This document shows positions 878-61,594 of a DNA stretch of 64,000 nt, piece by piece. This DNA comes from a virus, in the IMG/VR virus record IMGVR_UViG_3300033475_000015. One strand, given 5' to 3'. Position numbers and translations under genes: made by a program. Below the pieces are notes generated by a model. The model did not search any database. It was given only the letters and a program-made list of their open reading frames with translations, and was not told where the DNA came from. Every line of letters starts with the position of its first letter. Positions within the stretch are counted from its first letter, which is position 1.

Positions 878-1084
878 GTTGGCCGGGGAGTCCCAGTATG
901 GTGCGGCAAAGCCGCCCCGTGCTACGGTGGTATCACCGCCCGGAGCGGCGGCCCCCACCAGGGGCGACAGCCGGGGAAGGTCCGAGCGGAAGTGCCGCCG
1001 GAGTCGAGACGCAGAGTTGGGTTAGCTACCTGCGTCGAGCTTCGACAGGCACGCGCGGCGGCGTCGGGAGACGCCCCGCCCAAC
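878..1084 (+). ncRNA. Candidate structured ncRNA abutting the tRNA-Met gene
   Basis: Closing helix GTTGGCCGGGG/CCCCGCCCAAC; nested helices GTGCC/GGCAC, GTCGA/TCGAC, GACGCAG/CTGCGTC; hairpin GCGTC-GGGA-GACGC; no credible ORF. Confidence 0.4.
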
Positions 1085-1158
1085 GCGCGATAGAGCAGCT
1101 CGGTCAGCTCGCCAGCCTCATAAGCTGGAGGTCGAGGGTTCGAATCCCTCTCGCGCTA
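1084..1158 (+). tRNA. tRNA-Met(CAT), initiator-like body
   Basis: Full cloverleaf: acceptor CGCGCGA/TCGCGCT (C1:U72), D arm GAGC/GCTC, anticodon arm CCAGC-CTCATAA-GCTGG, T loop TTCGAAT; CCA not encoded. Confidence 0.9.
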
Positions 1159-1316: not shown

Positions 1317-1415
1317 GGGTCGATAGCTCAAATGGTAGAGCCGCGTAGTGGCGCGCCTGGTGACCTCCGGAAGCGAGCCTGCACGCGTGTGGTGGTTCGA
1401 TCCCACCTCGACCCC
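1317..1415 (+). ncRNA. tRNA-like RNA with ~36 nt in place of the anticodon loop
   Basis: Acceptor GGGTCGA/TCGACCC, D arm GCTC-AAATGGTA-GAGC, T arm GGTGG-TTCGATC-CCACC; stem CGCGT/ACGCG encloses 1347-1382. Confidence 0.7.
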
Positions 1416-1567: not shown

Positions 1568-1640
1568 GGGGGCGTAGCTTAAAGGTGAAAGCAGCTGTCT
1601 TATACACAGCCGAGTATGGGTTCAAGTCCCGTCGCCCCTA
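1568..1640 (+). tRNA. tRNA-Ile(TAT)
   Basis: Acceptor GGGGGCG/CGCCCCT, D arm GCTT/AAGC, anticodon arm GCTGT-CTTATAC-ACAGC, T loop TTCAAGT. Confidence 0.88.
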
Positions 1641-1703
1641 CCCCGTGTATGTCAACGATTTAAAGGTTGACACGAAGACAATAGCCGTGCAAGAATTTGG
1701 GTC

Positions 1704-2285
1704 ATGCAAACCGACATAGAGACGCTGGTGTGCCGCGCACAGGATGGGGACGCGGAGGCGTTCGGACGGGTGTACGCGGCCACAAGAGGACTGGTCCGGG
1801 GCCGGATAGCGATCAAGCTGCGCCGGGCCACGGGAAGGGCCCCGGAAGACCTTGTGGAAGACCTGGCCGCCGACGTGTTCGTCAGCGCGTGGCGGTCCTT
1901 GGGTCGGTACAGCAACCGGGGCGCCAAGTTCGAGGCGTGGCTGACCACGATCGCCAACAACCGGGTGCTGGACCACCTCAAGTCGCACCGCACCCGGTTC
2001 GAGTTCCTGGTGCCCGAGAACGAGGACGGCGAGATCGAGCTCGATCAGCCCGCACCGGAGGTCCACCAGCCGGACAGCCGGGCCGTGGCCAAGGACGAGT
2101 GGGCCCGCGCCCTGGCAGTCCTGGGCCAGCTGACTCCGACCCAGCGCGAGGTGCTGCTGCGCCGGTACTACCTGGACCAGCCGGTCGAGGACGTGGCGAC
2201 CGCCCTGGGCGTCAAGCCCGAGTCTATAAAGTCCATGAGCCTGCGCGGTGTGAAGTCCGCCCGGCGCCTGCTCGACAACGCCTGA
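1704..2285 (+). CDS. ECF-type sigma-70 family RNA polymerase sigma factor
   Basis: Region 2 (DVFVSAWRSL...FEAWLTTIANNRVLDHLK) and region 4 (LTPTQREVLLRRYY...VEDVATALGV...SIKS). Confidence 0.88.
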   Translation: MQTDIETLVCRAQDGDAEAFGRVYAATRGLVRGRIAIKLRRATGRAPEDLVEDLAADVFVSAWRSLGRYSNRGAKFEAWLTTIANNRVLDHLKSHRTRFEFLVPENEDGEIELDQPAPEVHQPDSRAVAKDEWARALAVLGQLTPTQREVLLRRYYLDQPVEDVATALGVKPESIKSMSLRGVKSARRLLDNA

Positions 2286-2851: not shown

Positions 2852-3145
2852 CCACACATGCGGCAGGGACCGCCCTTGATGTGACAGCCAGACCGGGCGG
2901 GTGGGATTTGTCACCCAACCCGCTGCCGCCCTGGGCGGACCGAACCGAACGTACGGCGTAAGTAGGACGTCCAGGTTTTGAGGGCGACAGGCCGTGCGCT
3001 GGCCTAAGGTAGAGCGCCGTCGGATGAGATCCGCCGACGGTTGCCGGGAAGCCGCGCCCGGGGTAGGCCCCGGGTGAAGCCAGCGCGCGGCCTGCCGCAT
3101 ACTTGTCGGCTGCGCCGCCCTCGACCAGCGTGTTAACCTGGCGGC

Positions 3146-3884: not shown

Positions 3885-4336
3885 CCGCCTCCCGATTCGA
3901 CCGGTACTACGGTCCGGCCATCTTCGGTGCCTTTGACGGCGTGGTCACCGTGCTGGGCGCCGTGTTCAGTCTGACCCACGACAGACACGCGCTGATCCTG
4001 TCCGGCGTCGGCCTGGCCGCCTCGGGCGCCGTGTCGATGGGCGCGGGTGAGTACCTGTCCGACAGCGACGCCGGGCTGGGCGCCAGCGCCGTCATCGGCC
4101 TGACCACCGGAGCGGGCACGCTGCTGCCCGTCGTGCCGTACATGGCGGACATGCCGCTGGCCACCTTCACCTCGATCACGCTGTGCCTGTTCGTCGCCGT
4201 CGGGATCAGCTGGGTCAAGTCCCGGACCGACCGGGGCACAACGCTGTTGCGCGCCGCTGCCCAGACGCTGGGCATTCTCGGGTTGGCCACCGCGTTCATC
4301 CTGCTATGCGCGTGGGCAACCGGTGCGGTAGGGTGA
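3881..4336 (+). CDS. VIT1/CCC1-family membrane protein (short)
   Basis: AIFGAFDGVVT...GAVSMGAGEYLS signature; several TM helices. Confidence 0.75.
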   Translation: MTASRFDRYYGPAIFGAFDGVVTVLGAVFSLTHDRHALILSGVGLAASGAVSMGAGEYLSDSDAGLGASAVIGLTTGAGTLLPVVPYMADMPLATFTSITLCLFVAVGISWVKSRTDRGTTLLRAAAQTLGILGLATAFILLCAWATGAVG

Positions 4337-4340
4337 CCGG

Positions 4341-13012: not shown

Positions 13013-13434
13013 CAGCTGCCCCCCAGCGCCCGAGCCATCTCGTCGGCGACCGACAACAGGTCCTCACTGACCAGGCTGCTCTTGCCCTCCATCTGCTTGG
13101 CCACCACGATCAGGTACCCCATCGCCAGCGCGATCTGGTACTTGGTCAACGACACCTCGATCTTCTCGTCGTCCGGCTTGCGGCGCGGCGCCCTCTTGGC
13201 CGGGGCGTCGCCCTTGACCAACACCACCTTGTGACCGAACACCCCCGCCCACGCGTGCAGCACGTCCAGCCTGGGCTGCATGTCGCCCCGCTCGTACCCG
13301 CTTACCGACGACCCGGACTCGAACCCGAGTTCGGTCGCGAGCTCCGGCTGGTGCATCTTGGCGGCCAGTCGGAGCTTGCGCAGCTCGGCGACGATCGGGT
13401 CGATGTCGCGGTCCTCGGGAATCGGCTTGCTCAT
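13012..13434 (-). CDS. XRE-family HTH protein
   Basis: LRKLRLAAKMHQPELATELGFESGSSVSGYERGDMQPRLD. Confidence 0.8.
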   Translation of the reverse strand: MSKPIPEDRDIDPIVAELRKLRLAAKMHQPELATELGFESGSSVSGYERGDMQPRLDVLHAWAGVFGHKVVLVKGDAPAKRAPRRKPDDEKIEVSLTKYQIALAMGYLIVVAKQMEGKSSLVSEDLLSVADEMARALGGS

Positions 13435-17287: not shown

Positions 17288-18919
17288 GTGGCCGACCCGA
17301 CCAAGGTGGTGTTGGCCACCAACCCGGACCTGATGGAGGGTCTGCAGGTGCTGGCCAACAGCCTGCCGGACTACCACCGGGCCGAGATGTATTACGAGGC
17401 GACGAACCCTGAGTTCTTCGCGTCGATCCGTCTCCGGCGGGCGCTGGAGCGTACGGGCATCACGTTCCGGTTCAACCTGGCCAAGACCCCGGTCGACGTG
17501 ATGGCCGACCGCCTGGAGATCAATGCCATTACGGTTCCGGACGACGAGGAGGCGGACCAGATCCTGCAGGAGATCTGGGACCGCAACATGCTGTCGCTGG
17601 AGTCGACCAACATCCACCGCCGGGCCGGAGAGTTCGGCGACGCCTACCTGATCGTGTGGCCGTCGGCCGACCAGGGGCAGGACGAAGACCCGGACGACCC
17701 GGAGTCCGACGATGAGGCGATGGCCGCCCTGGATTTCCAGAACGTCGACATCTTCTACAACAGTGCCAAGACTACGCGTGTCGTCTACGACCTGGAGAAT
17801 CCGCTGCGCAAGCGGTTTGCCGTCAAGAAGTGGACGATGCCCGCCCAGCTCGGCATGAAGGCCAAGCCCCCGACCCGGGTCAACCTGTACTACCCGGACC
17901 GGATCGAGAAGTACGTCAGCTCCCCGAACAGCAAGGGCAACCAGCGCCGGGACTGGATCCGGTTCCAGGACGACGAAGACGAGGGCTGGCCGGTGGCCAA
18001 CCCGTTCGGCGAGATCCCGGTGTTCCACTTTCGGACCGGGACCCCGTACGGCGACCCAGAGCACCGAGCGGGCTACGGCCCGCAGGACGCCATCAACAAG
18101 CTGATCATCACGCACGCCGCGACGATCGACTACTACGGCTTTCCCCAGCGGTACCTGCTGGCAAACCCCGACCACGGGTCGGACGAGCTGGCCGACTTCG
18201 ACACCTCGGACGACATCAACCGGTTCGAGGACACGGGACACGACTCCACGCTGCGATCCGGTCCCGGCGAGGTGTGGTGGCTCAACGGCGTGCGACAGGC
18301 GGGCCAGTTCGAGCCGCCGGACCCGGCGGTGTTCCTCAACCCGCTGGACACCTACATCCGCATGATGGCCCAGGTGACCAGTACGCCGCTGCACTACTTC
18401 GACCCTCAGACCTACACCCGTCTGCCCCCGTCGGGCGAGTCCATCCGCGCGGCCGAGGTGCCGCTGCTCAAGCGGGTGCGCCGTCGGCAGATCACCTACG
18501 GGCGCGGATGGACCGATACCATGTCGTTCGCCTTGAAGGTGGCGACCTGGGACGACGACTCTGGCACCGGCCGGATCCGGCGTCCCAACCTGACGATCCG
18601 CTGGACTCCGGCGGCCACCATCGACGACACCGCCGGGTGGCAGATGCTGCAGGCCAAGCAGACGCTCGGGGTGCCTCCGCGCCAGACCCTGCTGGAGGCG
18701 GGCTACGAGGACGAGCAGGTCGATTCGTGGCTGCCCTACGGCGGAGACGACCTGAACCAGCGGGTGGACATGTTGGTGAAGGTAGGTACCGCCGCACAGG
18801 CCCTGGCCACCGCCGCCAATCTCGGGGCGCTGGACGGCGGCACTGTCGAGTCCATCATCATGGGCATGCTCAACCTTCCGGCAGAGAAGAACACCCAATT
18901 CGACGAGGGGACATCGTGA
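17288..18919 (+). CDS. Portal protein (SPP1 gp6-like)
   Basis: NLAKTPVDVMADRLEI, NPFGEIPVFHF, QDAINK, YYGFPQRY motifs; position after terL. Confidence 0.88.
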   Translation: MADPTKVVLATNPDLMEGLQVLANSLPDYHRAEMYYEATNPEFFASIRLRRALERTGITFRFNLAKTPVDVMADRLEINAITVPDDEEADQILQEIWDRNMLSLESTNIHRRAGEFGDAYLIVWPSADQGQDEDPDDPESDDEAMAALDFQNVDIFYNSAKTTRVVYDLENPLRKRFAVKKWTMPAQLGMKAKPPTRVNLYYPDRIEKYVSSPNSKGNQRRDWIRFQDDEDEGWPVANPFGEIPVFHFRTGTPYGDPEHRAGYGPQDAINKLIITHAATIDYYGFPQRYLLANPDHGSDELADFDTSDDINRFEDTGHDSTLRSGPGEVWWLNGVRQAGQFEPPDPAVFLNPLDTYIRMMAQVTSTPLHYFDPQTYTRLPPSGESIRAAEVPLLKRVRRRQITYGRGWTDTMSFALKVATWDDDSGTGRIRRPNLTIRWTPAATIDDTAGWQMLQAKQTLGVPPRQTLLEAGYEDEQVDSWLPYGGDDLNQRVDMLVKVGTAAQALATAANLGALDGGTVESIIMGMLNLPAEKNTQFDEGTS

Positions 18920-19200
18920 ACGGCGACAGGTACACCAAGGGCGCGGCGTCGGACGCCGAGCTGCTGCACGGCTGTGGTCAGACCGGTAAAGTCATGGCGC
19001 CGGGCAACCGACACTCCGACATCACCAGCTCCACCACCAAGGGCATGGACCCCGGCATGTCGGCCACGCTGGGTCGGCCCAAGGCCAGTTCCGACTACAA
19101 GGGCTCGACCCCCGAGGACGTGAGCACAGCGCCGGGACAGCGCACGACCCAGGTCTTCGGCGCGGGCCGGGTCGCCCGTCCGAACCCCAACAACCCCTGA
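18916..19200 (+). CDS. Small head-region protein
   Basis: GTGA-coupled to portal. Confidence 0.6.
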   Translation: MNGDRYTKGAASDAELLHGCGQTGKVMAPGNRHSDITSSTTKGMDPGMSATLGRPKASSDYKGSTPEDVSTAPGQRTTQVFGAGRVARPNPNNP

Positions 19201-19239
19201 CATTGTCTTCGAGTCACTCAGTAGGATAGGCTGGTCGGC

Positions 19240-21342
19240 ATGGGCGACAACTGGGCCAAGTGGGACGCTGAGCATCCCTACATCCACCACCCCCGCGTGC
19301 GCAAAGAGGGCGAGAAGCCCAAGAGCTCGGCCGACAAGCTGGCCGAGATGATCAAGTCCACCGTGGGCAACCACGAGGGGTCCCGTGCCACCGTCCACGA
19401 GCACGGGTCCGGCGGGTCCGTCGTGCACAAGTCGGCCAAGGGCGACTTCAAGCGGCCGGTCCAGCCCAAGGGACACAAGGACCGGGCCGATAGTGCCCGT
19501 ACCACCATCCGCATGGCCGCCTACAACCGGGGCAAGAAGGGCGAGTCCCCCGAGGTCGGCAAGATCGCGCCCGAGTCTGGCAACACGGGCAAAATCCGCT
19601 CCGCCGACAGGCTGGCCGCCCAGGTTACCGGGGCCAAGACGGTTAAGGGAACCGACGGCAGCTACACTGTGTCGCACCCCGACTGGGAGGTCCGATCGGC
19701 TCAGAACCGGACCATCCGCAACAAGGCCGGGGCCGACGCGATCGGCAAGTACCAGGATGACATCTCCCGGGTGGTCAAGCAGTCCGGCGCCAAGGGTCGT
19801 CCCGGCCTGAACATCCACCAGAACGGCGACGTCTTCGACGACGACAGTGGCAAGAAGCTGGGCCACATCGAGACCCCAGGCGAGCGCAAGGCCCGTGAGG
19901 CGGGCGGGGGTGGTGTGGATGCGGGGGCCGAGTACCGGGCGCAGCGGGCCCAAAAGTACGAGGACGCCAAGTCCAAGGCCATGTCCGCCGGAGACGCCGC
20001 CAGCACGGCGCAGGAGCACCGGGCGGCAGCGGCGCTGCACGAGGTGGCCATGGAGCACGCCGCCAGTCCCAACCACCGGTCGCTGCACTACAAGCAGGCC
20101 GAGAATCACAAGAAGCAGGCCGACCTGGCGGACAAGCAGGCGGCGCGAGAGGCGGCCAAGGCGGAGCGCGCGACCCAGTCCAAGGGCAAGCCGGTGAAGC
20201 TGGTTGCCGAGTTCAACGGTCAGACCCACACCCGTACCAGCGCCCGGCCGTACACCCACGCTGCGATCTACCGCAACAGCGAGGGCAAGCACTACGCCTC
20301 GTTCCACGAGTCGCGTGCGAGCGCTCTGCGCGGCAGTGACGGCGCCCGTCCCATCGGCGTGGTTGCGGTACGTCCGGCCGACGAGGCTACCGCCGCCGAT
20401 GACGCGGCGCGCAAGCACTACGACATGGTAGCCGGGCGGGCCAAGCAGGCCAGCGACACCGCCAGGTCGGCCCGGGACCATGACGACGCGACCAAGCTCA
20501 ACCGCCGGGCCGCCGAGTTGGCTCCGACCGAGAACCACCGCAACGTGCACACCAAGCTGGCCGAGACCCACGAGAAGCTGGCCGACAACGCCCGACGGCA
20601 GGACGCTCTCAACGCCCAGAAAGAAGCCGACCGAAAGAAGGCCAGCGACGAGGCGGCCCGCAAGGTCGAGGAGGCCAAGGCCCGGGTCAACGATCGCCAG
20701 ACCAAGTACAACGACGCCCGCCAGAAGGCGTTCGAGGCCGGACGCAAGGCCGAGACCGAGAACACCCCCGAAGCGTACGAGGCGGCGTCGGCCGCCCACA
20801 CAGGTGCGGGCAACCTGGCGATCTCCGACCAGCAGCAGCGATCCCACGACACCCAAGCCAGGGCGTACCGCGAGAACGCCAAGAACCTGCGCGGCCAGAG
20901 CTCCGCCAGCAAGCTGGTAGCCGCCCGTGACAGCCGGGCCGCCAAGCCCGCCGCCCTGACTGGCCAGAATGTGCACAAGGCCCTCGAAGGTTCGGGCTTG
21001 CGGCGCAAGGTCAGCCAGGGAACCTCCACCGACTACCGGGGCCGGGTTCTGCAGCGCGGCGGCGGCATCGGTGAGGGCAAGTACGACTCCAAGAAGAACT
21101 ACGATGGTTCCTACCGGGTGGACGTCCATGGTGATCGCACCACCCCGCAGGGCGCAGCCCGTCACGACACCAACATCGCCAAGGCCCGCCAGGCCCTGGA
21201 GGCCAAGGGGTGGCAGGTCGACGAGGGTCACACCGGGATGGCTGGTCACCTGGAGGTGTCCGAGCGTAAGGCCGACGCCCAGATCGCCAAGGACCGCGCC
21301 GCGACTATCGCGAGCGTCTCGGGAAAAGCGGCAGCCCGGTAG
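19240..21342 (+). CDS. 700-aa Lys/Ala/Arg-rich head-region protein (short form of frameshift product)
   Basis: Leaderless TAGGCT -10; basic, low complexity; ends G-GGA-AAA-GCG-GCA-GCC-CGG-TAG. Confidence 0.8.
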   Translation: MGDNWAKWDAEHPYIHHPRVRKEGEKPKSSADKLAEMIKSTVGNHEGSRATVHEHGSGGSVVHKSAKGDFKRPVQPKGHKDRADSARTTIRMAAYNRGKKGESPEVGKIAPESGNTGKIRSADRLAAQVTGAKTVKGTDGSYTVSHPDWEVRSAQNRTIRNKAGADAIGKYQDDISRVVKQSGAKGRPGLNIHQNGDVFDDDSGKKLGHIETPGERKAREAGGGGVDAGAEYRAQRAQKYEDAKSKAMSAGDAASTAQEHRAAAALHEVAMEHAASPNHRSLHYKQAENHKKQADLADKQAAREAAKAERATQSKGKPVKLVAEFNGQTHTRTSARPYTHAAIYRNSEGKHYASFHESRASALRGSDGARPIGVVAVRPADEATAADDAARKHYDMVAGRAKQASDTARSARDHDDATKLNRRAAELAPTENHRNVHTKLAETHEKLADNARRQDALNAQKEADRKKASDEAARKVEEAKARVNDRQTKYNDARQKAFEAGRKAETENTPEAYEAASAAHTGAGNLAISDQQQRSHDTQARAYRENAKNLRGQSSASKLVAARDSRAAKPAALTGQNVHKALEGSGLRRKVSQGTSTDYRGRVLQRGGGIGEGKYDSKKNYDGSYRVDVHGDRTTPQGAARHDTNIAKARQALEAKGWQVDEGHTGMAGHLEVSERKADAQIAKDRAATIASVSGKAAAR

Positions 21343-22747: not shown

Positions 22748-23843
22748 CACCCCCGCTGAGCAGCAGGCCGTCAGCGCGGTCACGACGGAGAACGCCGCCG
22801 CCGTGGCTGCGCTGCTGGTGCTGGAGAAGCAGGCTCTCGACCGGGTGACCAGCGGGCTGCGCCAGATCCTCAACGAGTTGTTCCGGCGCCTGTCGGCCAA
22901 ATACGTGCTGCTGACCGGGGCCCTGGCCAACACCACCTCCCCCCAGCAGGCCGACCAGCTCAGGCAGATCCTGATCGACGGCATCCAGGACCTGGCGACC
23001 CAGGCCCAGCAGGCTGCACAGGCTCTCGCACAGGCCGCGCAGCAGGCCCTGGCCCGGGGCCGGGAGTACGCGAACCGGTACCTGTCGGACCCGGTCGACG
23101 ACGTGTCTTTGCCTGCTGAAGTCCAGCAGCTGATCGACGGTCTGCCCGCCCAGATCGAGGCCAAGATCGACGACGCCACCCGCGCCATCGAGCAACTGGC
23201 CCTGCCCGACTGGGACAGCCTGGTCAAGGCCGTCGGCCGGGCGAACCAGGTCCCCAACTCGGTGACCCGCACCGTGACCACGGCCGTGAACCGAGCGAAC
23301 AGCAGCGCCGTCCGACAGGTCGCTGTCGAGCGGGGTGCCTCTGTCCTGTGGGTGGCCGAGCCAGACGCATGCGTTATCTGCCTGGCCTTGTCCGGCCACA
23401 TCATCGACCCGATGTCGGGCGACGGGTTCGACGAGGAGGCCACCTTCGGCCGCCCCGGGTCGGCACCTGATGTGTGGCCGCCCGGCCAGCCGCTGATGGA
23501 GCCGCCCCGGCACCCGAACTGCCGGTGTCACCCGGAACTGTGGTTTGGCCCGCACGTCGCACCGGGCGGCCCCGAGGAGACCAGCCTGTACAACCGCCCC
23601 GGAATCGGCGAGCGCGTCGATCTTGCCGCCGCACTGCGCCGGGAGGCCAAGCGCTCGGTTCTGTACGGCTGGTCCCTCGAATCCGAGTCCAACAACACCC
23701 GGCTGTATGCGGCCCGGCGCCTGCTATCCCTTGGCGCCGGACTGCCCAAGTCTGTCGAGGAGCGCGCGCACCTGGCTGTGGCACGCGGCCAGTTCGAGGG
23801 CCGTGTCCACCCGTCAAAGCGGCGTACTGCACACCGGCAATAG
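22722..23843 (+). CDS. MuF-like (phage Mu gpF) minor head protein
   Basis: ACVICLALSG...PPRHPNCRC signature. Confidence 0.8.
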   Translation: MAQVNSAGNTPAEQQAVSAVTTENAAAVAALLVLEKQALDRVTSGLRQILNELFRRLSAKYVLLTGALANTTSPQQADQLRQILIDGIQDLATQAQQAAQALAQAAQQALARGREYANRYLSDPVDDVSLPAEVQQLIDGLPAQIEAKIDDATRAIEQLALPDWDSLVKAVGRANQVPNSVTRTVTTAVNRANSSAVRQVAVERGASVLWVAEPDACVICLALSGHIIDPMSGDGFDEEATFGRPGSAPDVWPPGQPLMEPPRHPNCRCHPELWFGPHVAPGGPEETSLYNRPGIGERVDLAAALRREAKRSVLYGWSLESESNNTRLYAARRLLSLGAGLPKSVEERAHLAVARGQFEGRVHPSKRRTAHRQ

Positions 23844-23909
23844 TCGATGTTAAACTGACCGTAGCCGACGGATGTCGGCGGTCAGCATCGTCCCGGTTGG
23901 GAGCCACTC

Positions 23910-24755
23910 TTGAAGGTCAACCGCCTGATCCCCCCGCTGCTCGGCGTGCCCATCGGGTACCTGCCCAGCGGCAAGCCCGTCTACCCCGTCTTCGGCGGGG
24001 CCGAGGACCTCGACATCGAGCCGGACGGCGAGGGGGGTGAAGAGGAGGACCCCGAGGGCGAGGACGACCCGGACGAGCCCGAGCAGGAGCCCGCCGGGAA
24101 GAAGGGCAAGTACACCCCGCCCGAGCAGTCCGAGTGGCTTAAGGTCCAGAATTCCCTGATGCGGGCCAGCGGCCAGGCCAAGCAGCGCCGTGAGGCCCTG
24201 GCCGAGGCCACCAAGAAGATTGCGGAGCTGGAGGCCGAGAAGGCCGAGCGCGAGGCGGCCGACGAGCGTGCGGCCCTGCGTGAGCAGCGCAAGCCCGCTG
24301 GCGGCAAGGCCAAGGCGGGCGGGGGTGGTGTACCCGACCTGCCGGAGGGCGTGATGACCAAGGCTCAGGTTCGCCAGGCGACCCTGGCCGCAGCCAAGGA
24401 GGCGGAGGACCGGGCGGCCGACAAGTATCGGGGCATGCTGGTTGGGACCGCCGCCCGCGCGGCCCTGGTCTCCGAGGGTGTCGGCAAGGAGGCGGCCAAC
24501 CGCCTGGTGAAGCTGCTGGACCTGGGTGAGATCGAGCTCGACCCGGACAACGGCGAGATCACCGGCGGCCTGGACGAGCAGCTGGAATCTCTGAAGACCG
24601 AACTGCCGCAGTTGTTCGCCAAGCCCGAGCCCGAGGCCCCCCGGCCCCGGCGCCGTCCGGCACCTCGGGTCACCGCCGCGCCCCAGCCGGAGGCACCAGA
24701 GCGTCCCCGCTCCTCGGCCGAGCTGATGGCCCAGTCCATCCTTGGAGGGCGTTAA
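23910..24755 (+). CDS. Capsid scaffolding protein
   Basis: Acidic/coiled-coil protein directly before the capsid gene; LKTELPQLF motif. Confidence 0.75.
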   Translation: MKVNRLIPPLLGVPIGYLPSGKPVYPVFGGAEDLDIEPDGEGGEEEDPEGEDDPDEPEQEPAGKKGKYTPPEQSEWLKVQNSLMRASGQAKQRREALAEATKKIAELEAEKAEREAADERAALREQRKPAGGKAKAGGGGVPDLPEGVMTKAQVRQATLAAAKEAEDRAADKYRGMLVGTAARAALVSEGVGKEAANRLVKLLDLGEIELDPDNGEITGGLDEQLESLKTELPQLFAKPEPEAPRPRRRPAPRVTAAPQPEAPERPRSSAELMAQSILGGR

Positions 24756-46693: not shown

Positions 46694-47470
46694 ATGGACA
46701 CCACGCTGGAGTACGAGATGGCGACGGACGCGCTGGCCGTTCTGACCGCCGCTGGCAAGGGGGACACCCCCCTGGCCGCTCGGGCCCGCGAGCTCCAGGC
46801 CAAGTACCAGACCACGGCAACGAGCACGGGATTCGGGGTGGCGGATTTGGTCCGGCTGAGCAACGGCGAGAAGCCTGCCAAGAAGACCGACGGCGGTCAG
46901 AAGGCCACCGGGTCCTCCAAGCGCGGGGGCGCGACCGACAAGCAGCGCGACTTCGCCAAGAGCCTGATGAACGACCGCGACTTCGGCAGCCTGTTCTACA
47001 CCCACCCGCTGCTGCACGAGGCGGGCACCCGGCTGCAGGGCGACGGGCCGATCGACTGGCAGACCTGCTCTGAGCTCATCAGCGTCCTGAAGGAGACCGC
47101 CTACCGCGCGGACTACGTGCCCAAGGCCCAGCGCTCCACCACCACCACCTCCCCCCGCGCCCCGCGCGAAGTCCGCGTGGAGGAGGGAATCTACCTGCTG
47201 GGCGACGATTACGTGAAGGTCGTCCACAACCAGGACCACACCCGCCTGTACTCCAAGGTCTGGGACGGCGAGTGCTGGGACTACGAGCAGGGGCGCAACC
47301 TGATCTACAAGCTGACCCCGGAGATGGCGCTGACCGCCGAGGACGCGCATGAGTTCGGGGACCTCTACGGCGAGTGCTGCTTCTGCGGCCTGGCACTGAC
47401 CGACGAGCGGTCCATCTCCGCCGGGTACGGCCCGACGTGCGCCAGCAAGCACGGCCTGCCCTGGGGCTGA
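46694..47470 (+). CDS. DUF6011-like Zn-finger protein
   Basis: C-terminal GECCFCGLALTDERSISAGYGPTCA. Confidence 0.75.
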   Translation: MDTTLEYEMATDALAVLTAAGKGDTPLAARARELQAKYQTTATSTGFGVADLVRLSNGEKPAKKTDGGQKATGSSKRGGATDKQRDFAKSLMNDRDFGSLFYTHPLLHEAGTRLQGDGPIDWQTCSELISVLKETAYRADYVPKAQRSTTTTSPRAPREVRVEEGIYLLGDDYVKVVHNQDHTRLYSKVWDGECWDYEQGRNLIYKLTPEMALTAEDAHEFGDLYGECCFCGLALTDERSISAGYGPTCASKHGLPWG

Positions 47471-55428: not shown

Positions 55429-55512
55429 GGCGCCCGAGCTGAACGACCGTGGGTTACCTTTCACTCTGGATGAAACAAGTCACCCCACAGTCACCCCACT
55501 TGCCCGGGTTCC
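55429..55512 (+). ncRNA. Y RNA-like 2 with anticodon-like hairpin (CTG, Gln)
   Basis: CGAGCTGAACG; TTTCA-CTCTGGA-TGAAA; 3' ACCCCACTTGCCC. Confidence 0.7.
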
Positions 55513-55539
55513 TGGACGCGGCACCACTTGCTGGGCCTC

Positions 55540-55742
55540 GGCCGAGCGAGCTGAACGACCGTCGGTTATCGCCTCTTAAGCGGGTGGTTGCGGGTTCAAG
55601 TCCCGCCGAAGGCAGTACGACCGTGAGCCGGTGAACGGACGTTACGACGATCCGACCCGGGCAACCTCACGGCTCCACCTCCCTCGTAGCTCAATTGGCA
55701 GAGCACCTAAACACCGGCAGTCACCAACTCGCTCGCTCGGCC
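55540..55742 (+). ncRNA. Y RNA-like 3 (YrlA-type) with permuted tRNA module and 66-nt insert
   Basis: 12-bp terminal stem; anticodon loop CTCTTAA, T arm GCGGG-TTCAAGT-CCCGC, then D arm GCTC-AATTGGCA-GAGC. Confidence 0.8.
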
Positions 55743-55761
55743 GGGACCCAGTTGGTGGACC

Positions 55762-55894
55762 GCGCGAGCTGAATGAGAGTCGGTTATCTCTTTAGAAAAG
55801 GGCCGGTCCGGGTTCGAACCCCGGCGTCTCCACGTGGGGACGTAGTGTAATTGGCAGCACGGTAAACACCGACGATCAACCACCTTGCCCGCGC
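55762..55894 (+). ncRNA. Y RNA-like 4 (YrlA-type) with permuted tRNA module
   Basis: CGAGCTGAATG; T arm CCGGG-TTCGAAC-CCCGG; acceptor CGTCTCC-ACGT-GGGGACG; D arm GTGT-AATTGGCA-GCAC. Confidence 0.82.
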
Positions 55895-55996
55895 ACCCCA
55901 GTCCGGCCCCGATCCGTTTGGCCCCCCCGGCGGATCGGGGCCGGGCCCATCCTCGCCCGATGACTGCGTCATCGAGCCGAATGCTAGGAGATCGAC

Positions 55997-57691
55997 ATGA
56001 GCAACGCTTTGTCTCGCCACGGCCAGACACACTCGACCCCCCAGACGTCCCCGATCCCGGGCCGCGAGCCCGACATGGTCCAGAACGCGGCGGGCGGCTA
56101 CGCCTTCGCCAAGGACCTGTTCGAGCGACTCCAGGACTTCCTGATCCTGGGCACCGAGGGCAACACCTACTACGCCGACGAGAAGTCCCGCACCCTGCAG
56201 AACGTGCAGGTGGTGCACGACGCGATCCGGGCCGACGGTCTGCGGGCTGTCAAGCTGGCCGTCGAGATCTCCACGGCCCGTCCGGCCCGTGCCGTCAAGA
56301 ACTTCCCGGCCCTGTACACGATCGCCGCTGCGCTGTGCTCGGACGACCTGGCCACCCGCCAGGCGGCGGCGGGCTCGACCCACCTGGTCGCCCGAACCAC
56401 CGACCATCAGGCCCACCTGTTCGGCTACGTCAAGTCGATGAAGGGCAAGCCCGGCGGGCGCAACGGCCGGTCCCCGTCTGTCGGCGGTCCCGTGTTCAAG
56501 CGTGCCTGGACCAACCTGTTCGTCCAGGACCGGGCCGACGCCGTGGCGTACCGGTACCTCAAGGCCCGGTCCCGCAAGACCGGTGACGGCGAGCCCTTCT
56601 CTCCGCGCGACCTGCTGCGCATCGCCAAGCCCGTCCCGAACAGCGAGGTCCAGAGCACCCTGTTCGGCCTGATCTCTGGCAAGGTCAGCCCCATGGAGGC
56701 GAGTGGTGCGCTGGCCTCGTGCAAGTCGTTCTATGAGGCTCAGCTGGCCGACACCCCGGCCAAGGCGGTCCGGGCGATCAACGCCTACCACGTCCCGTGG
56801 GAGTTCCTGCCCACCGAGGTCCTGAAGCACCCGGAGGTCTGGGAGGCCCTGGTCCCGCACCTGGGCATGACGGCCCTGATCCGCAACCTGTCGCGGATGA
56901 CCCAGATCGGAACCCTCGGCCCCTTCAAGCGGGCCAACCGCCGGGTGGCCCAGCGGCTGACCGACCAGGCCGAGCTGCACGCGGCCCGGATCCACCCGTT
57001 CGACCTGCTGCTGGCCCTGAAGGTCTACGAGTCCGGCGCGGCCCAGCCGAATCTTAAGGCACCGGTCCGCACCTGGGACCCGGTGCCCGAGATCGTCACC
57101 GCCTTGAACGAGGCCTACGTCAAGTCCTTTGCGGTCTGCGACAAGATCCCCGGCAACCTGCTGGTGGCCGTCGACAGCTCGGGCTCGATGCAGGGCACGA
57201 ACGTCCAGCACGGCGGGTCAAATCTGGGGTCGGCCTATCGCATGGCCCTGGCGTTCGGCCAGATCCTGATGCGCACCTGGGGCGGCCAGGTCCACATGGT
57301 CGACTTCGACCAGGAGCTGCGCCGCAGCCCGCTGCGGGCCGACATGACCCTGTCCGAGATCAACCGTCTGCACAACGGCCGGGGCTGGGGTACCGACGCC
57401 TCGGTCGTGATGCGCTGGGCCACCCAGCACCGCCACTTCGTCGACGGGTTCGTCCTGATCACGGACAACGAGTCGTGGGCCGGGGACCGCCACGCCAGCC
57501 AGGCCCTGACCGAGTACCGCCGTACGGTCAACCCCAACGCCCGCGTGATCTGGGCGGCCACAGTCCCGAATGGCTACAGCCTCGGCGACCCGACCGACCC
57601 CGGCATGCTGAACGTCCAGGGGTTCGACAGCAACCTGGCCACCCTGGTCTCCTCGTTCATCGGGCCCGCCGTGCGGGCGCCGATGGGGTAG
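55997..57691 (+). CDS. rsr: Ro60-related TROVE-domain RNA-binding protein with vWA domain
   Basis: QNAAGGYAF, FLILGTEGNTYY, MTALIRNLSRM, RIHPF, VAVDSSGSM, GTD, ITDNE, DPGMLNVQGFD. Confidence 0.93.
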   Translation: MSNALSRHGQTHSTPQTSPIPGREPDMVQNAAGGYAFAKDLFERLQDFLILGTEGNTYYADEKSRTLQNVQVVHDAIRADGLRAVKLAVEISTARPARAVKNFPALYTIAAALCSDDLATRQAAAGSTHLVARTTDHQAHLFGYVKSMKGKPGGRNGRSPSVGGPVFKRAWTNLFVQDRADAVAYRYLKARSRKTGDGEPFSPRDLLRIAKPVPNSEVQSTLFGLISGKVSPMEASGALASCKSFYEAQLADTPAKAVRAINAYHVPWEFLPTEVLKHPEVWEALVPHLGMTALIRNLSRMTQIGTLGPFKRANRRVAQRLTDQAELHAARIHPFDLLLALKVYESGAAQPNLKAPVRTWDPVPEIVTALNEAYVKSFAVCDKIPGNLLVAVDSSGSMQGTNVQHGGSNLGSAYRMALAFGQILMRTWGGQVHMVDFDQELRRSPLRADMTLSEINRLHNGRGWGTDASVVMRWATQHRHFVDGFVLITDNESWAGDRHASQALTEYRRTVNPNARVIWAATVPNGYSLGDPTDPGMLNVQGFDSNLATLVSSFIGPAVRAPMG

Positions 57692-60940: not shown

Positions 60941-61594
60941 ATGCCCGTTACCGCAAGGGACGTCCTGGGTCCAAAGGACCTGAATTCCAGGTACTTCGAC
61001 TGCCTGCTGCACCTGCCGCGCGAGCCGTACACCGTGCTGACCCTGCGTGACGCCAACTGGTCTCACCGGGGCCGCTGGCACCTGTCTGGCTCGATGCACG
61101 GCCTGGCCGAGGACAGATTCGATCTGGCCATGTCGGACGGCTGCCAGATTCTGTACCAGGACGGATCGCGCGAGTCGGTCGACTTCTACCTGGTCAAGGG
61201 CAACCCGATCTATCAGGTCACCGAGGTGCACGGCCGGTTCGGCGTATTCATCAAGGGCGTGCCCCGGTACCCCAGGGGCAAGTCGGAGGAGCGGCAGGCC
61301 GGGGTGGAGGTCACCACCCGCCTGGTGCCCGAACTCCACCAGCTGCTGACCAAGTACCTTGGCGAGATCGACATGCAGCGCCGTACCTGGCTGGTCGAGC
61401 AGCTGCAGGCCCTGCGCGACCGGGAGGTGGCCGCCAGCTCCGCCCGCCTGGCTCGCCAGTGCGCCGACACCCTCGACCGCCTGAACGACCTGAAGATCCG
61501 GGTCGGCGAGGCCGTCCAGGACTGGCACGAGGGCGACGCCCACGACGAGGTGTTCGACCGCATCCAGAAGCTGCTCCACGCCGACGGATCCTGA
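60941..61594 (+). CDS. Hypothetical protein
   Basis: AAAGGA RBS. Confidence 0.7.
   Translation: MPVTARDVLGPKDLNSRYFDCLLHLPREPYTVLTLRDANWSHRGRWHLSGSMHGLAEDRFDLAMSDGCQILYQDGSRESVDFYLVKGNPIYQVTEVHGRFGVFIKGVPRYPRGKSEERQAGVEVTTRLVPELHQLLTKYLGEIDMQRRTWLVEQLQALRDREVAASSARLARQCADTLDRLNDLKIRVGEAVQDWHEGDAHDEVFDRIQKLLHADGS

Follow-up and report, generated by a model that had tools for sequence, protein, structure and literature searches.

A phage tRNA gene with a UAU anticodon was found directly ahead of an ECF sigma factor gene that carries an in-frame ATA codon at its very start. In six distinct phages the two genes lie side by side and are inherited together, and ATA is scarce in the other genes of these phages. 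The tRNA and the sigma gene are read here as a two-part cassette that acts as a feed-forward translational gate, an interpretation given about an even chance. The window, the whole stretch of DNA analysed, covers 64 kb of a 75,199-bp contig (67% G+C; about 11 kb lie outside the view) from a soil phage, probably of filamentous Actinobacteria, and its terminase shares about 50% identity with the terminases of Streptomyces phages, e.g. Yara and Zuko. TTA is absent from every called gene of the window; TTA avoidance is usual among phages infecting bldA-type hosts (PMC10732093).

The tRNA gene occupies positions 1568–1640 (+ strand), with the anticodon at 1601–1603. The TAT anticodon reported there by the first-pass annotation was borne out by ARAGORN (called as 1568–1642, trailing bases included), by a full-length match to Rfam RF00005 (68.7 bits) and by the fold, a cloverleaf with the anticodon loop CU UAU AC, A37, discriminator A73 and no encoded CCA. 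By score and by A37 this copy is canonical, and it is presumed to be an elongator-type tRNA-Ile reading AUA without lysidine. UAU, C32, U33 and A73 were invariant in seven copies of tRNA(UAU). Some of the bodies are odd for an efficient decoder, with U37 in L192, C37 in G428 and anticodon-stem mismatches in L002, L068 and L072. The L192 gene, which carries U37, was missed by ARAGORN. More generally, UAU tRNAs of high-GC phages with a pyrimidine at position 37 (L278, L295/G428 with C37 and L192 with U37) can escape this program.

Three further RNA features were recorded nearby. A tRNA-like element at 1317–1414 (+) of the window, with counterparts at about 260–356 in L072 and 793–891 in L192, has normal acceptor, D and T arms and a long irregular hairpin, with apex GGTGACCTCCGG, in place of the anticodon arm; it is kept in these three phages, always flanked by tRNA-fMet and tRNA(UAU), and is missed by Rfam. 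An initiator-type tRNA(CAU) at 1084–1158 (+) has an unpaired 1:72 position, A11-U24 and an anticodon stem reading A-G-C instead of three G-C pairs. The same stem region carries different changes in L069, L073, L074 and G004, and the altered stem of the window copy is possibly a means of nuclease evasion. A conserved non-coding stretch at about 2980–3100 (+), 73% identical over 123 nt to positions 4225–4340 (approximately) of L002 and lacking an Rfam match, is probably a structured RNA.

The sigma gene (1704–2285, + strand) encodes 193 residues with Sigma70_r2 and r4 domains, and NCBIfam models place the product near BldN, below the family cut-off. Its start at 1704 is backed by a database gene call (P0001, 193 aa) and by a promoter match that ends 7 nt upstream. 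The simple gene caller used here cut this gene short twice; the counts were repeated under a codon-neutral model and, at seven loci, on database calls. The Ile codons of the gene are ATA at codon 5 (1716–1718), codon 35 (1806–1808) and codon 175 (2226–2228), and ATC at 1812, 1950 and 2034, so that the proportion first noted, three ATA among six Ile codons with one at codon 5, stands exactly as claimed. Codon 5 is the conserved, putative lock codon, found at codon 3 in five relatives; the positions of the other two are not conserved, the second lying opposite Val or Ile and the third mostly opposite Val. That ATA was otherwise isolated had been a matter of spot checks, and the full count agrees with it: the rest of the window holds 4 ATA among 620 Ile codons, spread over four different genes. 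The enrichment test that had been proposed gave a binomial P(≥3 of 6) of 5e-6 and a Fisher P of 1.7e-5, significant after correction for about 86 genes; ATA is thus not similarly frequent elsewhere. Other rare codons also occur within the first 50 codons of the sigma gene, and GC3 is 0.73 over the first 30; because the early codons hold these other rare codons, a general 5′ effect could not be set aside from the window alone, and it is the relatives that exclude it.

Relatives were gathered through the terminase and a small neighbouring gene, a selection blind to both sigma and tRNA. In six distinct phages (the window, L002, L068, L069, L072 and L192; L070 is nearly identical to L068 and the two were counted as one), tRNA(UAU) lies 39–63 nt ahead of the sigma start. 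The six paired sigma factors share 31–59% identity and fall into three sub-lineages, between which four-fold sites are 17–58% identical. All six genes nevertheless contain the early ATA, at codon 3 in five and at codon 5 in the window, with variable flanking bases, vs 6 of 761 genes of low-ATA phages with ATA in codons 2–6 and 1 of 21 leaderless-like genes. Counted over the three lineages only, the chance of the early ATA is about 1e-6 to 1e-4. The six cases share ancestry and represent conservation, not six independent origins; the terminase tree did not resolve whether the tRNA carriers are monophyletic.

Pooled sigma genes use ATA for 12 of 48 Ile codons, compared with 12 of 2044 elsewhere, so a codon near-absent from ordinary genes is retained in a regulator, as with bldA. 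The early ATA is the sole one in the sigma genes of L069 (1 of 15 Ile codons) and L002 (1 of 8). The conserved trait is therefore a single early ATA and not gene-wide enrichment, the zero to two extra ATAs shifting position. The expectation that related phages co-inherit the tRNA with an ATA-rich sigma gene therefore held for the pairing and failed for gene-wide richness in L002 and L069, and the proposed link between sigma gene and tRNA is supported by co-inheritance of the pair with ATA at codon 3 or 5 throughout. A further relative (P0111) has a sigma protein that starts MTI and an 888-nt gap before its gene. Separately, the terminases of L069 (15562–18318) and G006:C324 (819–3572) are about 918 aa long and contain an in-frame insertion relative to the 579-aa protein of the window; the insertion is probably an intein.

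Between tRNA(UAU) and the sigma gene a promoter match, TTGACA-18-TG-AAGAAT, was found. The −35 hexamer TTGACA lies inside a palindromic box, TTG(A/C/T)C-N5-G(A/G/T)CAA (1667–1681, +), which is a family-wide promoter/operator motif, and the −10 hexamer AAGAAT with its upstream TG (1691–1696, +) ends 7 nt before the ATG. A host-type promoter stands 6–7 nt ahead of the ATG in all six paired sigma genes, with the −35 within a similar palindromic box. With so short a distance, the sigma mRNA is probably leaderless. Copies of the box number 10 in the window (20 strand hits vs 0.6 expected) and 16–17 in sigma-less relatives, and the sigma gene would therefore be transcribed like other phage genes, the codon being an extra layer. 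A second motif, GGGTGGTGT, is present in about 40 copies across the window (3.6 expected; for example at 2506, 4671, 25957 and 44149), with a strong + strand bias irrespective of gene direction; it is common to G003, G004 and L073, hardly occurs in C324 and G001, and is a candidate packaging, recombination or translocation signal. Neither GGGTGGTGT nor TTGAC-N5-GNCAA qualified as a sigma-specific late promoter, as both repeated motifs occur in sigma-less relatives too.

These 5′ ends allow another account, which we consider quite unlikely: that the early ATA holds a potentially toxic sigma factor low, or mirrors A-rich leaderless starts, while the tRNA is adjacent only through a shared early-gene block. 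The 5′ ends of the sigma genes are indeed rich in A and in rare codons, hosts read AUA, and in one relative (L010, see below) the early ATA is present and no such tRNA was found. However, an early ATA occurs in just one of the 21 leaderless-like controls, the first ten positions show no conservation of other rare codons, and an AUA-reading tRNA would cancel any dampening. The shared block also fits poorly, since the genes separating tRNA-fMet from tRNA(UAU) vary between relatives, yet tRNA(UAU) remains beside sigma.

Outside the sigma gene, ATA accounts for 0.56% of Ile codons in tRNA carriers vs 5.9% in non-carriers (10/1788 vs 145/2439), and no other codon is depleted more than 1.4-fold. At paired orthologous Ile sites ATA was counted 0/226 times in carriers vs 13/226 in non-carriers. 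Per genome, seven carriers and seven non-carriers did not overlap, with a P value that is optimistic since the genomes are related, and the difference lies mainly in frame. The cassette was found only where background ATA is 0–2.6%, and relatives without the tRNA have 4–20%; a gate that depends on a limiting codon would be expected to show this, and codon compensation cannot explain tRNA(UAU).

The ten-fold difference, confined to a single codon, could also mean that a poorly charged or mischarged tRNA disturbs AUA decoding and ends sigma synthesis after an early pulse, perhaps handicapping ATA-rich host or rival-phage genes as well while the phage's own genes avoid ATA. Pyrimidine 37 and the stem mismatches of some copies would suit such a brake, as would the poor charging of UAU tRNA by E. 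coli IleRS (PMC3575796). We nevertheless regard it as very unlikely. Unrelated actinophages in whose examined DNA no UAU tRNA was found are just as poor in ATA (Yara 1.1%, Zuko 0.6%, G437 0.3%, G436 0.9%; Sycamore has 4.5%), so low ATA is the actinophage baseline, the non-carriers are the unusual group and no poison is needed; moreover, the window tRNA is canonical and the candidate hosts have a type-2 IleRS. The idea that carriers purged ATA because the tRNA poisons AUA was weakened by the same phages and kept as a minor rival. In the high-ATA relatives (G003, G004, L045, L073, L074, G001 and L190) ATA makes up 4–20% of Ile codons, mostly exceeding ATT and above both the candidate hosts and most other actinophages examined, which may point to hosts with freer AUA decoding. 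A tRNA-Ile2(CAU) of their own was considered and rejected, their CAU tRNAs being fMet-like or of a degenerate short form, not Ile2-like.

The sole clue to the host is the relative L068, whose contig was binned with an Actinocrinis genome. TilS was found in 26 of 26 Actinocrinis-related genomes, taken as candidate hosts (25 of 25 without the unpublished genome G009), and tRNA-Ile2(CAU) in four of the five candidate hosts checked; ATA makes up 1.7–2.7% of their Ile codons. An exact pattern for a UAU-type tRNA matched in 1 of 401 genomes of the class, and that match was on the phage contig itself. The host group thus reads AUA solely by the TilS/lysidine route, and a host without TilS is ruled out for this group. 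It had been suggested that the phage tRNA bypasses TilS; this is sound as chemistry, but the candidate hosts possess TilS and tRNA-Ile2, and the phage gene does not replace a missing tilS or tRNA-Ile2 as in M. mobile. Because hosts read AUA already, the tRNA is a second AUA reader; a gate could only be quantitative or conditional, and the lock is not absolute.

The type-2 IleRS marker DUF5915 was present in five of five candidate hosts, and such an enzyme may charge UAU tRNA, as in the tilS-less Bifidobacterium (PMC3575796). An unmodified U34 tRNA in B. subtilis reads AUA well and AUG weakly (PMC3919564). ATA sites align mostly with Ile, Val or Leu, and initiator features are absent from tRNA(UAU), in which 1-72 is paired and the three G-C pairs are missing; Ile is therefore the default identity, and the tRNA is predicted to be charged with it. 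That it inserts another amino acid at AUA, or initiates at ATA, is extremely improbable. Several ATA sites of the window do lie opposite Val or Thr, not Ile, but others lie opposite Ile, and the tRNA has neither a G3-U70 pair nor a long arm to confer another identity. ATA as the start codon was excluded by the elongator-type tRNA together with an in-frame ATG ahead of the early ATA in all six sigma genes.

Absence of the two genes is also linked. The UAU tRNA was not found in five relatives without sigma at the locus (two of them, G003 and G004, complete), which keep the CAU tRNA, and the complete genomes G003 and G004 gave no match to three phage sigma queries. Exceptions were nevertheless found. 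A fourth sigma sub-lineage (L190 and L010) has no tRNA(UAU) beside the gene. The L190 sigma, seen in 9 kb, lacks an early ATA; that of L010/G001 uses ATA for four of nine Ile codons, codon 5 among them (P 5e-4 relative to its own background), and no UAU tRNA was found in the roughly 57 of 76 kb searched. L010 is the main counter-example to the gate. In the integrase-carrying family member G428, a UAU tRNA of another kind (C37) sits in a separate transcription unit, 35 kb from an independently acquired sigma gene that has no ATA. Unrelated high-GC phages (G432 and G433, both complete) carry a UAU tRNA, and sigma was not found in them; the tRNA therefore has other uses.

One such use would be rescue: a general AUA reader, independent of TilS and insensitive to nucleases, could sustain host translation when defence or starvation removes tRNA-Ile2, and the early ATA would make the sigma factor report the overall capacity for decoding AUA and not the phage tRNA specifically. 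UAU tRNAs in other high-GC, ATA-poor phages without sigma, and the ATA-rich sigma of L010 with no tRNA in the part searched, are compatible with it, and the variable loop and stem positions fit the idea of nuclease evasion (PMC10264068). We think it unlikely: it leaves unexplained that, within the family, the two genes are strictly adjacent or missing together, and no defence against tRNA-Ile2 was identified in this analysis.

Two wider searches were discarded. A tRNA followed by ATG-NNN-ATA, sought as the same layout in other phage groups, gave 60 matches, all AT-rich and mostly chance short ORFs. Of the candidates for a partner effector travelling with the cassette (a nuclease or TilS inhibitor), the one tested (60941–61594) had no match in PHROGs or the ESM Atlas. 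Unusual tRNA-like genes were seen elsewhere in the family. L010 has one at 1881–1965 (+), with an anticodon arm of a 7-bp stem and a 13-nt loop, at the position where other members have tRNAs. The window encodes a Ro60/TROVE-type RNA-binding protein (55997–57691, +; phrog_850), with homologues in G003, G004 and G428, preceded at about 55450–55900 by tRNA-like non-coding stretches that resemble Y RNAs. Degenerate tRNA-like genes, some without a D or anticodon arm, occur around the Ro60 gene in G428 (18401–20859, −), G004 (13073–13141) and G003 (47350–47410).

The best NCBIfam family of the window sigma is BldN (TIGR02952; 84 bits against a cut-off of 206). For six sigma factors tested, TIGR02952 ranked best or second-best at 65–85 bits, below the same curated cut-off. 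The best PDB match of the sigma profile was 6dxo, which we take to be BldN, and the phage proteins group together as sister to the host BldN-like proteins in a tree with midpoint rooting that included no other ECF groups. By these profile and tree comparisons the phage sigma is related to BldN and not a member of the family. The pattern GTAAC-spacer-CGT, a BldN-type promoter consensus, gave only scattered matches in the phage genomes, and a sigma-specific repeated motif was not found there. Sigma factors closely similar to host BldN-like proteins were also seen in other phage or prophage records: L001 9932–10558 (+), with one TTA and one ATA codon, G437 near 3100 and G428 23427–23939 (−).

A role in opening a later transcription phase, as first proposed, is not supported. 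A late sigma factor would be found in every member and be needed by late promoters; the complete genomes of G003 and G004 lack any match to the sigma queries, the palindromic box is shared with genes of sigma-less relatives, and the protein is related to BldN. Because complete relatives do without it, the sigma is accessory, and its target is more likely to lie in host development or in an optional phage regulon than among late genes. In S. venezuelae, aerial growth that depends on BldN restrains the spread of phage (PMC10117723); this offers a motive for a phage sigma factor and no evidence of its target.

In the gate that we favour, the sigma gene would be transcribed early from its host-type promoter as a leaderless mRNA, and ribosomes would meet AUA just after initiation (codons 3–5), where a scarce tRNA would favour peptidyl-tRNA drop-off; in E. 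coli, hungry codons early in an ORF promote such drop-off (PMC10192219). With host tRNA-Ile2 alone, little sigma would be made. After transcription, maturation and charging with Ile by the host eukaryote-type IleRS, the phage tRNA would read AUA without TilS, and sigma output would rise after a delay, or only upon tRNA expression; we infer both this dependence on the tRNA and the sign of the effect. The product would be an accessory, BldN-derived regulator. By a more ambitious proposal, possible but doubtful, a private AUA-reading tRNA licenses this BldN-derived sigma through one codon near the 5′ end of a leaderless mRNA and so reprograms the developmental state of a filamentous actinobacterial host. 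If true, this would be a bldA-like switch with lock, key and developmental effector all phage-encoded.

The purpose of phage tRNAs has long been open, and codon compensation or nuclease evasion is what is usually proposed. The codon read by the present tRNA is one that the phage hardly ever uses, and the neighbouring regulator is the one gene that always keeps it; neither proposal therefore fits simply. The regulatory role of a phage tRNA is reduced to a two-gene question: one synonymous change, and one tRNA present or absent. The findings also point to BldN-like sigma factors as phage tools, and, if the gate is real, a cassette of about 720 bp would serve as a natural model for codon-gated expression in actinomycetes.

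A phage tRNA(UAU) tied to a regulator was not found in literature searches, whose coverage of subscription journals was poor. Shiga-toxin phages carry ileZ-argN-argO tRNA genes upstream of stx2; these are seen as a supply for a highly expressed gene and not as a gate, the codon is not known to be scarce genome-wide, and ileZ has a CAU anticodon that needs TilS. The likeness lies in phage tRNA genes for rare codons, AUA included, beside a gene that uses them, and the differences in the UAU anticodon of the window tRNA, its candidate role as a gate and the genome-wide scarcity of its codon. Firmicutes phages have sporulation-like sigma factors that were non-essential in one study (10.1101/2021.11.12.468384). 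Like those, the sigma described here is a host-like developmental factor that complete relatives lack; unlike them it is of an actinobacterial ECF type related to BldN, and the abstract of that study describes no codon gate.

TilS-independent tRNA-Ile(UAU) is known from Mycoplasma mobile, Bifidobacterium and a B. subtilis tilS suppressor (PMC3575796, PMC3919564). As in these, a U34 anticodon would read AUA without lysidine, but there the tRNA replaces the TilS route cell-wide, whereas the candidate hosts here have TilS and the tRNA is tied to one gene. The Streptomyces phage Hau3, with UUA codons in its terminase gene as a proposed regulatory sensor (PMC10732093), is likewise an actinophage using a rare codon in this proposed way; in Hau3 the tRNA sensed is the host's and translational bypassing is used, whereas the window phage supplies its own tRNA and no bypass was seen.

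The closest comparison is with bldA (tRNA-Leu UAA) and its TTA control of adpA and other regulators in Streptomyces (PMC10732093, PMC2000904). In both, a rare codon nearly absent from ordinary genes is kept in a regulator, a dedicated tRNA reads it, and the regulator is tied to a developmental network, here through BldN. The phage pair differs in its codon, AUA in place of UUA, in the adjacency of tRNA and target, both of them carried by the phage, and in the fixed position of the codon right at the beginning of a probably leaderless mRNA. The tRNA(UAU)-sigma pair is real and conserved and would work like bldA/TTA control, but it stands outside the bldA class proper, in which the tRNA is the only reader of its codon: the candidate hosts of the phage have their own AUA reader in TilS and tRNA-Ile2.
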